Virus record (IMG/VR): IMGVR_UViG_3300024344_003081
DNA from: a virus
Taxonomy: Duplodnaviria > Caudoviricetes
Length of the DNA: 64,000 bases
Strand: one strand, 5' to 3'
This document shows, piece after piece, positions 32,193 to 62,962 of this stretch (position 1 is the first letter of the stretch; the number at the start of each line of letters is the position of its first letter). Position numbers and translations under genes: made by a program. The notes under the pieces were generated by a model, which made no database searches, was not told the origin of the DNA, and worked only from the letters and a program-made list of their open reading frames with translations.

Positions 32193-32541
32193 TGAATATG
32201 CTAGTTTTGACTTCGGTTTTTCCGCAGTAGATGATGAAGAATATAAAGCAAAAACTACAGAAGTAGAAAAAAAGATTGAACAAGTAGAAGCAAAATCAAA
32301 AGATTTTTCGGCATTAGAAAAGAAAATAGATTCTGCTATTAAAGAAATCGGTTATAAAAAAGATTATTTAGAAGAAAAATATGTAGAAGATATGAGCAAA
32401 ATTGAACAATTAATTTTACCTCTTTTATATAATCTTATGAAAAATCCAGATAAGGATTATATTTATTGGCCGAATCGTGAAGAAATTATTACTAAACAAA
32501 TAGAAAAAATTAAAGATGTGACTCAAGATTTATCTAAATAG
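32176..32541 (+). CDS. Conserved T4-like hypothetical protein
   Basis: DFGFSAVDDEE...LILPLLYNLMKNPDKDYIYWPNR; start at ATG 32176. Confidence 0.65.
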   Translation: MAQIPDEYASFDFGFSAVDDEEYKAKTTEVEKKIEQVEAKSKDFSALEKKIDSAIKEIGYKKDYLEEKYVEDMSKIEQLILPLLYNLMKNPDKDYIYWPNREEIITKQIEKIKDVTQDLSK

Positions 32542-32544
32542 TTT

Positions 32545-32885
32545 TATCGATGATACTGTAGAGTAGCATTTAAGACATCGGTGCGATTCCGATCAGCTCC
32601 ACCAAAGGAACATCAATGAGTAGTGCAGATATGGCCATATTAGTAGTATTAATTGTAATTGGCATAATTATGACGGGAACTTATTTTTATTTTGGTGGGT
32701 GATTCTTTGGAGGGGCTGTAATAGAATTCGATTGGATGTGATTATACAGAGGAGATCATCTTGACAGATGTAAAATGTCATTTAAATTAATCGCAAATAA
32801 TAACGATTATTATTCAGCACAAGTGGCATTAGCCGCTTAATCGCTGGCGGGCTTATGATTGTGCCTTGGAACAGAAACAATCAGA
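32545..32885 (+). ncRNA. ssrA: Circularly permuted (two-piece) tmRNA gene: acceptor piece ending 32604, intervening segment 32605-32711, coding piece from 32712
   Basis: 3' piece ...GAC ATCGG TGCGATT CCGAT CAGCTCC ACCA precedes 5' piece GGGGCTG...GAATTCGA; inter-piece helices TTGGATGT/GCATTTAA, TACAG/CTGTA, ATCATC/GATGAT; tag ORF 32793-32840 ANNNDYYSAQVALAA*; outer ends approximate. Confidence 0.92.
32616..32702 (+). CDS. 28-aa single-TM peptide inside the tmRNA intervening segment
   Basis: AAGGAA 5 nt upstream of ATG; MSSADMAILVVLIVIGIIMTGTYFYFGG*. Confidence 0.55.
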   Translation: MSSADMAILVVLIVIGIIMTGTYFYFGG

Positions 32886-32904
32886 CACACACAACACACA
32901 CACA
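32885..32904 (+). repeat. CA-rich microsatellite-like leader
   Basis: ACACACACAACACACACACA directly before SD TAAGGAG of ORF 32917. Confidence 0.8.
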
Positions 32905-32916
32905 TAAGGAGAAAAT

Positions 32917-33144
32917 ATGTCTAATCCATATGAATTAAGATTTAGACTTTTAGAGATGGCTTCTGGTTATCTTTATGATCAACAGCAAAAACAAACACAA
33001 TTCGCTATTGATGCATGGGAATTTGCAAAAGAAGAAGGTACAGCAAATATGGAGTTGTTTAAAGACCTCCAACCCAAAAATTATACTATTGAAGACATAA
33101 AGAATAAAGCTACTGAACTTTATGAATTTGTTGAAAAAAAATAA
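32917..33144 (+). CDS. Small conserved phage protein
   Basis: NPYELRFRLLEMA...IKNKATELYEFV; strong SD. Confidence 0.75.
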   Translation: MSNPYELRFRLLEMASGYLYDQQQKQTQFAIDAWEFAKEEGTANMELFKDLQPKNYTIEDIKNKATELYEFVEKK

Positions 33145-33187
33145 TTGGCGCACCCCATCTGTAATGGATGGGGTTCTTCAGGAGAAA

Positions 33188-33580
33188 ATGATCAGCTTAA
33201 CAGAAAAAGCCGCTAGTAAAATATTAAGCATTATGAAAGACCAAAAAGTATCTGGTGAGACAGTATTACGGGTTGGAGTTAAGGGCGGAGGATGTTCAGG
33301 ATTTACTTATACAGTAGACTTTGATACTAGAAAAGGAAAGTTTGATTTAGAGTTTGAATCATATGGTTTAGGAATTTTATGTGACAAAAAGAGTCATCTA
33401 TATATTAAAGGCACGGAAATTGATTGGTCAGATGATTTAAATGATAGAGGATTAAAATTTAACAATCCTTCAGCTAAAGGTTCTTGTGGCTGTAGGACTT
33501 CTTTTATGTACGAACATACGGAGACTAAAACTGAAACAACACCTAATTGGATGGGAATGAACAATGCAGACTACTTGTGA
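33188..33580 (+). CDS. iscA: IscA/HesB A-type Fe-S carrier
   Basis: MISLTEKAA, GVKGGGCSGFTY, FNNPSAKGSCGC; start at ATG 33188 after GGAG. Confidence 0.92.
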   Translation: MISLTEKAASKILSIMKDQKVSGETVLRVGVKGGGCSGFTYTVDFDTRKGKFDLEFESYGLGILCDKKSHLYIKGTEIDWSDDLNDRGLKFNNPSAKGSCGCRTSFMYEHTETKTETTPNWMGMNNADYL

Positions 33581-33959
33581 ATTAAAAATAACAGAAAAGG
33601 CCGCAGTAGAATTTAAACAAATGTGTATTGGTGAAGATAAACATTGGGCGGATGCATATTTAAGAATAGGAGCAAATTCAGGCGGATGTTCTGGTTGGAA
33701 GTATAGTTTAGATTATGAAGATACAGTAGAGTCTACAGATTTAATTTTCGAACAGCATGGTGTTAAATTAGTAGTAGACGAATACATTCTTAATGATATA
33801 ATTGGTGATGTAGAAGTAGATTATAAAGTAGGAAATTTAGTAGAACAAGGATTTATATTTAAACGGCTCAAATTTGAGCATGTCTGTGGATGTGGAGAGA
33901 GTTTTACACCAGTAAAAGATATCCCTGCAGACGGTAAACAAAAATTAGGATGGAATTAA
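33564..33959 (+). CDS. Second IscA/HesB-family Fe-S carrier
   Basis: LKITEKAA, SGGCSGWKY, HVCGCGESF. Confidence 0.88.
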   Translation: MQTTCELKITEKAAVEFKQMCIGEDKHWADAYLRIGANSGGCSGWKYSLDYEDTVESTDLIFEQHGVKLVVDEYILNDIIGDVEVDYKVGNLVEQGFIFKRLKFEHVCGCGESFTPVKDIPADGKQKLGWN

Positions 33960-33960
33960 T

Positions 33961-34350
33961 ATGGCATATTCAGAAAAAGTTATAGATCATTTTCAAAATC
34001 CAAAAAACATCGGAAGTTTTGATAAAAATGATCCAACTATTGGAACTGCTCTTGTAGGCGCTCCAGAGTGTGGCGATGTAATGAAATTACAGATAAAAGT
34101 GGGTGATAATGGAACAATTGAAGATGCTAAGTTTAAAACATTTGGTTGTGGAAGTGCAATAGCAAGTTCTTCACTTGCAACTGAATGGGTAAAGGGAAGA
34201 ACTTTAGATGAAGCATGGGCGGTAGAAAACACCGAAATCGTAGAAGAATTATCATTGCCTCCAGTAAAAATTCATTGTTCTGTTCTTGCAGAAGATGCGA
34301 TTAAAGGAGCAATAGCAGATTATAAGAATAAACATGAAATAAATACTTAA
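33961..34350 (+). CDS. iscU: IscU/NifU Fe-S scaffold
   Basis: YSEKVIDHF, GAPECGDVMKLQI, FKTFGCGSAIASSS, LPPVKIHCSVLAEDAI. Confidence 0.97.
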   Translation: MAYSEKVIDHFQNPKNIGSFDKNDPTIGTALVGAPECGDVMKLQIKVGDNGTIEDAKFKTFGCGSAIASSSLATEWVKGRTLDEAWAVENTEIVEELSLPPVKIHCSVLAEDAIKGAIADYKNKHEINT

Positions 34351-34395
34351 AAAGCAACAGAATCCCGTATAAACATAAATATAAAGGAGTTAACA

Positions 34396-34509
34396 ATGTG
34401 TAATAATCCAGAATGCAAATGTACAGATTGCACCTGTGATCCATGTGAATGTTCGTCTGAGAGTCCTTGTGGATGTGAATTTGATGATGAACAAGTAGCA
34501 CCAGTTTAA
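34396..34509 (+). CDS. Metallothionein-like Cys-rich peptide (not in ORF track)
   Basis: SD AAGGAG; MCNNPECKCTDCTCDPCECSSESPCGCEFDDEQVAPV*, 9 Cys in 37 aa with four CxC pairs. Confidence 0.75.
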   Translation: MCNNPECKCTDCTCDPCECSSESPCGCEFDDEQVAPV

Positions 34510-54299: not shown

Positions 54300-54641
54300 A
54301 TGGAAAAAGAAGGAACAATAACTGAAAACAGACCCAAAAAAGGAGCAACTGCCCGTGGTTTTAAAAGAGTAAGAGAACCACAAAAACCAAGCAATTATGC
54401 TGTTGTTCTACATGATGATAATTATACTACAAAAGATTTTGTGGTATATATTTTACAAGAAGTCTTTCATCATTCATTTATAGATGCTGAAAGAATTATG
54501 TTAAATGTGCATGAAAATGGTTTAGGCGTTGCAGGAATATATCATTTTGAGATAGCAGAAGAAAAAGCATATTATACTGCAGATTTAGCAAAAGAATATG
54601 AATATCCTTTAAAAATAACAATAGAGAAAGTAAATGAGTAG
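54300..54641 (+). CDS. clpS: ClpS N-degron adaptor of ClpAP
   Basis: YAVVLHDDNYTTKDFVVYILQEVF, AERIMLNVHENG.GVAG.Y..EIAEEKA, EYPLKITIE. Confidence 0.93.
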   Translation: MEKEGTITENRPKKGATARGFKRVREPQKPSNYAVVLHDDNYTTKDFVVYILQEVFHHSFIDAERIMLNVHENGLGVAGIYHFEIAEEKAYYTADLAKEYEYPLKITIEKVNE

Positions 54642-54795
54642 TATAAGAGAGATTAGACAAATGGGATCTATTCTACAAAGAAAGAGTCGAGGTAGAATAT
54701 GGAATAATGATATAGATCCAGTCAAGAAACACAAGAAACGAAAGAAATCAAAAGAACACATTCATAAGAATTGGGATCATGATTTGTGGGACTAA
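54634..54795 (+). CDS. Small basic hypothetical protein (not in ORF track)
   Basis: 53-aa ORF overlapping clpS stop and next gene start. Confidence 0.45.
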   Translation: MSSIREIRQMGSILQRKSRGRIWNNDIDPVKKHKKRKKSKEHIHKNWDHDLWD

Positions 54796-62043: not shown

Positions 62044-62889
62044 ATGACTACATTAATTTCACCCCAAGATTTCACCAACGCCACAAATCAACTCAGAACT
62101 TTCTTTAATGACCTCGGATTTCTTGAAGTCCATACGCAAAATCGTCTTTCGATTCTTGCCGCTTGTGAAGATCCAACTACAGTTTCCACTTACGATTATG
62201 CAGGAAATATTTGGCCTCTTCCTCAGACTGGTCAAATGTGGCTGGAATACGAATTACTACAAAATCCCGATTTAAAAGGCGTATACTGTGTATCAACATC
62301 GTATCGACAAGAACAAAATCCAGTAGCAGGAAGACATGATTTGATCTTTCCAATGTTTGAATTTGAAGCACCAGGTACATTTGATGATTTAATAGAGATG
62401 GAAGAAAACTTAGTTTGTCATCTTGGATTCAGACCATGTGTATATCCTATTAAAAGATATACTGAATGGCAAGAAGAATTCAATACAACTGAAGAATTAA
62501 ATCACGAACACGAACAAATGATTTCAGATTCACATACCAACATTCAACAAGCAGGTGTGGGTTTTATTACACATTTTCCCTATACTACATCACCCTTTTG
62601 GAATATGAAGAAAGAAGGAGAATTTGCTAACAAATGTGATGTTATTATAGATGGAATGGAAACTATTGGATCTGCAGAAAGATCCGCTGATACAGTAGAA
62701 ATGAGAGAACAATTTCATACAATATCAGATGGAGAATATGCTAGTTTATTGTACGAATTATTTGGAAAAGAGAGAGTAGAAAAAGAATTAGAGGAATTTT
62801 TAAGTTATGATTTCTTTCCTAGATATGGAGGAGGAATCGGAGTAACAAGACTTATTAGTGCTTTGAAAAATTGTGGAGTGGCGAAATAG
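62044..62889 (+). CDS. Class II aaRS catalytic-domain-only paralog (AsnRS-like / archaeal-type asparagine synthetase family)
   Basis: Motif 1 LRTFF...GFLEV, LPQTGQMWLE, motif 2 SYRQE...RHDLIFPMFEFE, ETIGSAER, motif 3 PRYGGGIGVTRL; no N-terminal OB anticodon domain. Confidence 0.85.
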   Translation: MTTLISPQDFTNATNQLRTFFNDLGFLEVHTQNRLSILAACEDPTTVSTYDYAGNIWPLPQTGQMWLEYELLQNPDLKGVYCVSTSYRQEQNPVAGRHDLIFPMFEFEAPGTFDDLIEMEENLVCHLGFRPCVYPIKRYTEWQEEFNTTEELNHEHEQMISDSHTNIQQAGVGFITHFPYTTSPFWNMKKEGEFANKCDVIIDGMETIGSAERSADTVEMREQFHTISDGEYASLLYELFGKERVEKELEEFLSYDFFPRYGGGIGVTRLISALKNCGVAK

Positions 62890-62962
62890 GTAAACGCAAC
62901 CAGTTGTTTACTGGTCGAGTCGGGGCAGACTTTTGAAGGTTCGAATCCTTCCTCCACAGCCA
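62872..62962 (+). tRNA. Non-canonical tRNA, anticodon GTT (Asn), with long variable arm
   Basis: Acceptor TGTGGAG/CTCCACA + G + CCA; D arm GCG..CGC; anticodon arm ACCAG-TTGTTTA-CTGGT; 19-nt variable region with GAGTC/GACTT stem; T arm GAAGG-TTCGAAT-CCTTC. Confidence 0.85.

Follow-up and report, generated by a model that had tools for sequence, protein, structure and literature searches.

The tmRNA locus of a marine phage raises the question of whether the intervening segment of a two-piece tmRNA, usually treated as disposable, may carry a gene of its own, and what maturation of the tmRNA would do to the expression of such a gene. Open reading frames this short are missed by gene callers. The locus lies in a stretch of 64,000 nucleotides, hereafter called the window, from a virus of the Caudoviricetes (Duplodnaviria; IMG/VR record IMGVR_UViG_3300024344_003081).

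The window derives from a large marine T4-like phage without a close cultured relative. It is AT-rich, with about 30-37% G+C, and all 29 of its ORFs of at least 250 aa are on the + strand; its DNA polymerase is T4-type and 52% identical to cyanomyophage polymerases, and it further encodes a class II ribonucleotide reductase, glutaredoxin, Fe-S assembly proteins and ClpS. The window and the marine T4-like phages with a permuted tmRNA named below share a similar gene order, comprising an exonuclease-like gene, a small gene, the tmRNA and further small genes. When the tmRNA regions of the window and of one relative were compared by blastn with a collection of phage records, no match was found, and therefore no annotated cultured representative of this tmRNA clade is available. 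Consensus scans for promoters and terminators around the tmRNA locus revealed nothing convincing.

Several other features of the window were observed. Directly 3' of the tmRNA and a 75-aa gene are two HesB/IscA-type Fe-S assembly genes and a NifU/IscU gene (33122-34509), and the same stretch holds a 37-aa cysteine-rich, metallothionein-like ORF (34396-34509). Between the tmRNA and the ribosome-binding site of the next gene lies a CA-rich tract (32887-32906), which shows small length differences among the metatranscriptome contigs of relatives, namely 2 missing nucleotides and single-base insertions. In addition, the Rfam alignment of a 91-nt tRNA-Asn(GTT) (62872-62962) shows about 17 inserted nucleotides separating the anticodon stem from the T-arm, an unusual feature in a class I tRNA.

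ARAGORN located a permuted tmRNA at 32512-32931 on the + strand, with the tag ANNNDYYSAQVALAA, and the Rfam model tmRNA_permuted (RF04321) matched positions 32549-32840 along all 213 of its positions, scoring 94.3 bits (gathering score 47). As in other permuted genes, the acceptor piece, with the T-arm, the 3' acceptor strand and CCA, is upstream of the coding piece, with the 5' acceptor strand and the tag frame. The Rfam alignment, ARAGORN and reading of the sequence place the acceptor piece at 32549-32604; it contains the 5' strand of a long pairing with the coding piece and the T-arm, and reading of the sequence gives the 3' acceptor strand at 32594-32600, the discriminator A at 32601 and the CCA end at 32602-32604. 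The coding piece, placed by ARAGORN and Rfam at 32712-32885 with an approximate 3' boundary, starts with the 5' acceptor strand GGGGCTG (32712-32718, read from the sequence) and contains the partner strand of the long pairing, the tag reading frame (32793-32840, ARAGORN) and a 3' hairpin; all these elements are on the + strand. With its full-length Rfam match, the G3:U70 pair (G32714 with T32598) and encoded CCA of an alanine identity, and a tag frame that has an Ala resume codon and a hydrophobic end of the ALAA type, the window tmRNA is intact.

A permuted tmRNA of alphaproteobacterial type has likewise been described in other T4-like marine phages, namely Pelagibacter phage HTVC008M and the OM43 phage Melnitz (PMC9004378). 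The spacer of the cultured HTVC008M is short and empty, whereas that of the window is filled by an ORF. In Melnitz, the 3' part of ssrA contains a glutamine riboswitch, and an ORF in the intervening segment is unmentioned in the description of this two-piece tmRNA (PMC9004378); a search of the window for this riboswitch gave no match, even at E values up to 10.

Between the CCA end at 32604 and G1 of the coding piece at 32712 lies a spacer of 107 nt (32605-32711, + strand), which is absent from the mature two-piece tmRNA. The original prediction had held that this segment is almost exactly filled by a gene for a membrane micropeptide, and the boundaries, coordinates and peptide that it gave were all found to be exact. 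A Shine-Dalgarno-like AAGGA (32605-32609) directly follows CCA and is 6 nt before the ATG of an 87-nt ORF (32616-32702, + strand), which ends with TGA and nearly fills the spacer. The 28-aa product is a single-pass membrane peptide with a polar N-terminus (MSSAD), a hydrophobic helix at residues 6-24 with a mean Kyte-Doolittle hydropathy of 2.51, within the transmembrane range, and an aromatic and Gly-rich C-terminus. The features of a small membrane-protein gene, that is, a ribosome-binding site, a start, a stop and a single hydrophobic helix of at least about 19 residues, are thus all present. An equally filling ORF arose in 71 of 2000 dinucleotide shuffles of the window spacer (p about 0.036), and U-rich, AT-rich sequence readily yields hydrophobic codons, which counts against the gene reading. 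Taken alone, the window ORF is suggestive and only weakly beyond chance, and the significance of the arrangement therefore rests on the relatives.

We gathered relatives from IMG/VR using two neighbouring proteins and tmRNA sequence patterns, and located their permuted tmRNAs by ARAGORN; an independent recount by regular expression (CCA plus the complementary GGGG strand) agreed. The spacers in the tmRNA clade of the window, which has tags starting with ANN, fell into three classes: the shortest, of 13-35 nt, were without an ORF; those of 95-113 nt contained an ATG ORF of 26-33 codons, filling 81-96% of the spacer; and those of 178-205 nt contained an ORF of 50-59 codons, filling 87-90%. Altogether, an ORF filled a fraction of 0.81-0.96 of the spacer in 44 of 44 distinct ANN-clade tmRNAs with a spacer of at least 60 nt, whereas the spacer was filled in only 2 of 29 tmRNAs with other tags, though their spacers reach 194 nt. 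The combined shuffle p was 6e-17 over 15 distinct cargo sequences, the reverse strands of the cargo spacers were closed, and AGGA, GGAG or AAGG was found at the equivalent place in nearly all cargo-bearing relatives. Homologues without the ORF, for which the original prediction had recommended looking, were present only among the short spacers (13-35 nt) and leave the idea unrefuted; the existence of these homologues indicates that the cargo is dispensable.

The short cargo comprised roughly a dozen membrane-peptide families that had no recognisable sequence similarity to one another, all of the peptides (26-33 aa) having a short polar N-terminus and one helix with a hydropathy of 1.6-3.3. The long cargo was a Lys/Arg-rich basic protein of 52-59 aa with a conserved EHF..W-D-DLWD end motif. 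Two sister families of the window peptide show purifying selection in their codon patterns. In the MEK family (30 aa, 35 unique nucleotide sequences), dN/dS was 0.32 in the coding frame, whereas the two alternative frames gave 0.66 and 1.37, and 3-4 different codons were used for the invariant Leu and Gly residues; in the MDD family, one pair had a dN of 0.17 and a dS of 1.77 (ratio 0.10), with third codon positions holding 15 of the 23 differences.

The family of the window peptide, gathered from IMG/VR and, by means of a back-translated N-terminal pattern, from a metagenome collection, contained 8 distinct sequences (27, 28 and 30 aa), each of them intact and hydrophobic. Every member from both sources was located between CCACCA and GGGGCTG, and the changes in length (27, 28 and 30 codons) were all in frame. 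The dN/dS comparison that had been proposed as a check gave a divided answer, since the value was about 1 in the window family itself (0.26 to more than 2, on 27-28 codons), whereas the sister families gave the 0.32 and 0.10 mentioned above. The coding signature of the window family would therefore consist of frame integrity, in-frame length change and kept hydrophobicity, with residue-level selection not among its components.

The basic-protein cargo formed at least 50 clusters at 90% identity in the metagenome protein collection, and members of this family also occurred as free-standing genes with their own ribosome-binding site and without a tmRNA nearby. One such free-standing copy is present in the window (54634-54795), where this family member of 53 aa overlaps the 3' end of a gene for a phage ClpS adaptor (Pfam ClpS, 91 bits), the pair lying within 54300-54795. 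ClpS was found within 1 kb of the basic-protein family only in the window and two other distinct loci, and its adjacency was accordingly dropped as a general context of the basic protein; a functional link of the basic protein and ClpS to ssrA-tag proteolysis is only a thought. A Cys-rich ORF similar to that at 34396-34509 follows the free-standing basic-protein gene of locus L367 (about 1687-1773). In another relative (L079:1088-1276), the basic-protein cargo was frameshifted near the C-terminus, with loss of the conserved DWD.DLWD end, representing either cargo decay or an assembly error.

Comparison of eight cargo peptides with Pfam and PHROGs gave nothing significant, and a protein-atlas look-up returned generic small membrane proteins at 0.85 for the peptides and unnamed clusters only for the basic protein. 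Since the cargo belongs to no Pfam or PHROGs family, any function for the peptide is a guess; ours is that the window peptide may be an accessory factor by which the phage acts on the host membrane.

We found that the spacer ends are paired in a closing stem. The window spacer and its flanks fold at -34.7 kcal/mol (z = -3.1), none of 200 shuffles folding as well, and the minimum-energy and centroid folds agree in pairing 32602-32609 with 32703-32710 and 32611-32614 with 32698-32701. According to these predicted folds, the 5' arm (32602-32614, + strand, also seen by covariation) consists of CCA, the ribosome-binding site and the bases before the ATG, the 3' arm (32698-32710, + strand) consists of the last sense codon, the stop TGA (32700-32702) and TTCTTTGG, and the window acceptor stem is lengthened by about 12 pairs. 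In 18 cargo groups, CCA together with the first 22 nt of the spacer was then paired with the last 22 nt, arms from different groups serving as controls: cognate arms had a mean of -14.0 kcal/mol versus -8.3 for non-cognate arms (Mann-Whitney p 1.5e-8). The closing stem thus covaries across the cargo families, with different sequences and kept pairing, and the empty spacers are just the closing hairpin. Most spacers end with UUGAU before G1, and many ORFs stop at that UGA, 1 nt before G1. The predicted structures lock together the ribosome-binding site, the stop region and, in many cases, the ATG at the foot of a hairpin stacked on the acceptor stem, and a ribosome-binding site so paired would hinder initiation on the folded precursor.

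Comparison of tmRNAs with closely similar flanks showed that the spacers vary independently of them. For example, the window and one relative (L008) were 100% identical in the acceptor piece over 70 nt and 97% identical in the coding piece over 190 nt, but only 40% identical in the spacer. On a common backbone, L082, L104 and L217 contained an empty spacer of 26 nt, a membrane-peptide spacer of 103 nt and a basic-protein spacer of 198 nt, respectively, and the same MEK peptide was found in several different tmRNA backbones. ORF-filled spacers were also observed in other tag clades, at L218:1150-1253 (tag ANDEQFALAA), with a 29-aa membrane peptide, and at L257:402-576 (tag ANDNAFLMAA), with a 50-aa protein; the same closing stem is formed in each, and the slot is therefore not confined to one phage lineage. 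Judging from these comparisons, the spacer is a general, exchangeable site for small genes, and cargo exchange has probably taken place by recombination between the conserved tmRNA flanks.

The original prediction thus stands in part. That the spacer carries a small membrane-peptide gene of its own is favoured by the ORFs with ribosome-binding sites that fill every long spacer in the relatives, by the purifying selection in the sister families and by the free-standing occurrence of the basic-protein gene; a dedicated pairing of the tmRNA with one membrane peptide, which it also implied, does not agree with the unrelated cargo on near-identical backbones. The window ORF is very probably a real but dispensable small gene in an exchangeable slot, and its translation is predicted.

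The nearest bacterial genome (G001; loci L371 = G001:C40 and L382 = G001:C49) includes a contig with the same permuted tmRNA, in which the spacer-ORF peptide is 93% identical to that of the window. G001 also has an ordinary one-piece tmRNA with the tag GKKQLALAA, and among 151 genomes of its class a permuted tmRNA above the cut-off was found in one, that one being the phage-like contig itself. Since the class is otherwise without permuted tmRNA and G001 has its own one-piece tmRNA, the phage contig was probably mis-binned into G001, and a host inferred from this genome was rejected.

Transcripts of the locus were sought in four metatranscriptome runs as Logan contigs, from which RNA ends, strand and level cannot be read. 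Contigs connected the tmRNA coding piece to the next gene, and one contig started exactly at 32712, a weak hint given that contigs cannot map RNA ends; the ORF stretch 32616-32683 was without contig cover in the four runs, which is uninformative either way. In RNA-library contigs of relatives from two studies, the acceptor piece was joined to a different membrane-peptide ORF and then to the coding piece, which is weak evidence given that DNA carry-over is possible. Runs X15 and X17 contained loose ends at 32571-32613, at which the acceptor piece runs into an otherwise unsampled ORF starting with MEKAGIILVV, suggesting that cargo diversity is larger than IMG/VR shows.

We consider it likely that a real membrane-peptide gene is nested in the excised hairpin spacer, is expressed from the precursor and occupies a general slot; for its translation, the timing of that translation and the processing enzymes, we infer the following course. 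Two cuts would be made in the precursor, one where the acceptor piece ends in CCA (32604) and one, presumably by RNase P, at G1 (32712), with which the coding piece begins. The spacer of 107 nt would form a hairpin prolonging the acceptor stem, with the gene for the 28-residue peptide nested inside; the 5' arm would hold the ribosome-binding site of this gene, and the 3' arm its stop codon together with the bases that follow. The peptide would most likely be translated from the nascent or not-yet-folded precursor, within a polycistronic transcript. Initiation would require an open stem, most simply on a nascent transcript still lacking its 3' arm, or else during unwinding of the stem by another ribosome. 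Folding of the stem and of the tRNA-like domain would be followed by cleavage at G1 and trimming to CCA, freeing the spacer as a closed hairpin with a sequestered ribosome-binding site, and this RNA would probably be degraded.

Processing had originally been supposed, if the ORF is translated, to release or destroy a mini-mRNA. Since its ribosome-binding site is held in the conserved closing stem, the fragment cut out is more likely to be a silenced hairpin than a released messenger, and maturation would more likely end peptide expression than start it. Since stem closure and processing would hide the ribosome-binding site, expression of the peptide may be tied to transcription of the tmRNA and limited by its maturation.

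The same anatomy may be read differently, with the act of translating mattering more than the peptide. In such a cis-acting translation sensor, a ribosome on the 3' arm would melt the closing and acceptor stems and thereby delay or gate folding and RNase P processing, so that tmRNA output would be tuned to free ribosomes: while free ribosomes translate the ORF, both stems would be held open and maturation delayed; when ribosomes are scarce or stalled, the stem would snap shut and RNase P would release mature tmRNA; and a ribosome terminating at the base of the stem would free the ribosome-binding site for re-initiation. The location of the ribosome-binding site and the stop region on opposite arms of a stem stacked on the acceptor stem is as this reading would have it, as are the use by many relatives of the UGA of the conserved UUGAU as stop, 1 nt before G1, the interchangeability of unrelated ORFs in the slot and the dN/dS of about 1 in the window family. 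However, purifying selection in the sister cargo families acts at the amino-acid level, the basic-protein cargo is also found as a gene in its own right, and close relatives as well as HTVC008M have no spacer ORF at all; such a sensor would, moreover, be compatible with a functional peptide. A cis regulator of the leader-peptide or attenuator type would be expected to combine an ORF overlapping alternative RNA structures with an unconserved product; the ribosome-binding site and stop region do lie in the closing stem, but the MEK, MDD and basic-protein families have conserved products. We regard it as unlikely that the spacer ORF serves tmRNA production as an inbuilt sensor of ribosome availability, at a site doubling as a plug-in slot for small early genes.

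It is quite unlikely, in our estimate, that the cargo is selfish or addictive, that is, a type I toxin-like hydrophobic peptide or a mobile mini-gene that sits in a safe site and does not serve the tmRNA. Single-helix peptides of 26-33 aa do have the size and shape of type I toxins, the cargo is patchy, dispensable and swapped in the manner of a cassette, and the hidden ribosome-binding site is reminiscent of the translational locks on toxin mRNAs, but there is no mobility gene, one kind of cargo is a hydrophilic basic protein unlike a toxin, and the peptides have no family match in Pfam, PHROGs or the protein atlas. We consider it very unlikely that the spacer is structured only and contains no gene, its open frame being a by-product of base composition and the conserved hairpin. 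An accidental frame is difficult to reconcile with the filling of 44 of 44 long ANN-clade spacers, each with ATG and a ribosome-binding site, versus 2 of 29 in other clades, some of whose tmRNAs also have spacers of 60-194 nt, or with the closed reverse strands, the in-frame selection in the MEK and MDD families and the in-frame length changes at 27, 28 and 30 codons; it would agree with the single-window shuffle p of only 0.036, with the window family dN/dS of about 1 and with the window ORF being without expression support in the metatranscriptome contigs, themselves uninformative.

The reading that we prefer, a membrane-peptide gene expressed from the tmRNA precursor, belongs to a kind of arrangement in which a gene is nested in the excised part of a stable RNA. 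SgrS/SgrT, RNAIII/hld and E. coli tyrT-tpr are cases in which one transcript gives rise to a stable or regulatory RNA and a small protein; their ORFs are located within or after the functional RNA, whereas that of the window is in a segment removed for maturation. In Leptospira, 23S rRNA contains intervening sequences with an ORF for S23p. Such intervening sequences also occur in the 23S rRNA of Coxiella burnetii (PMC4990558), where a stem-closed segment with the ORF inside is excised without religation, as here, leaving an RNA that is fragmented yet functional, like the two-piece tmRNA; the Coxiella paper suggests that S23p is not made in vivo (PMC4990558). The host RNA differs in the S23p case and the ORF is far larger, whereas the tmRNA-spacer cargo is diverse and exchangeable; a Pfam scan found no homology to the S23p four-helix bundle in any cargo. 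The S23p intervening sequence is the nearest analogue in mechanism, not in membership.

Homing-endonuclease genes are known in group I introns of tmRNA genes (PMC11915505), and in these introns, too, a protein gene lies in a part missing from the mature RNA. The introns differ, however, in having splicing, exon ligation and a mobility enzyme, whereas the window spacer has no intron fold or endonuclease and the RNA stays in two pieces. For the intervening sequences of permuted tmRNAs, the 2025 tmRNA database paper mentions a tRNA-Ala gene as well as a repetitive element, but no protein gene (PMC11915505), and our full-text literature search on tmRNA intervening segments and ORFs found no description of a protein gene in the spacer.

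The roughly a dozen natural single-helix peptides form a defined set whose roles can be studied. If such spacers are a widespread slot for exchangeable small genes in abundant marine phages, a class of phage micro-proteins would have been overlooked, tmRNA precursors would double as messenger RNAs, and translation and stable-RNA maturation would compete on one molecule, offering a simple, testable system for their coordination.
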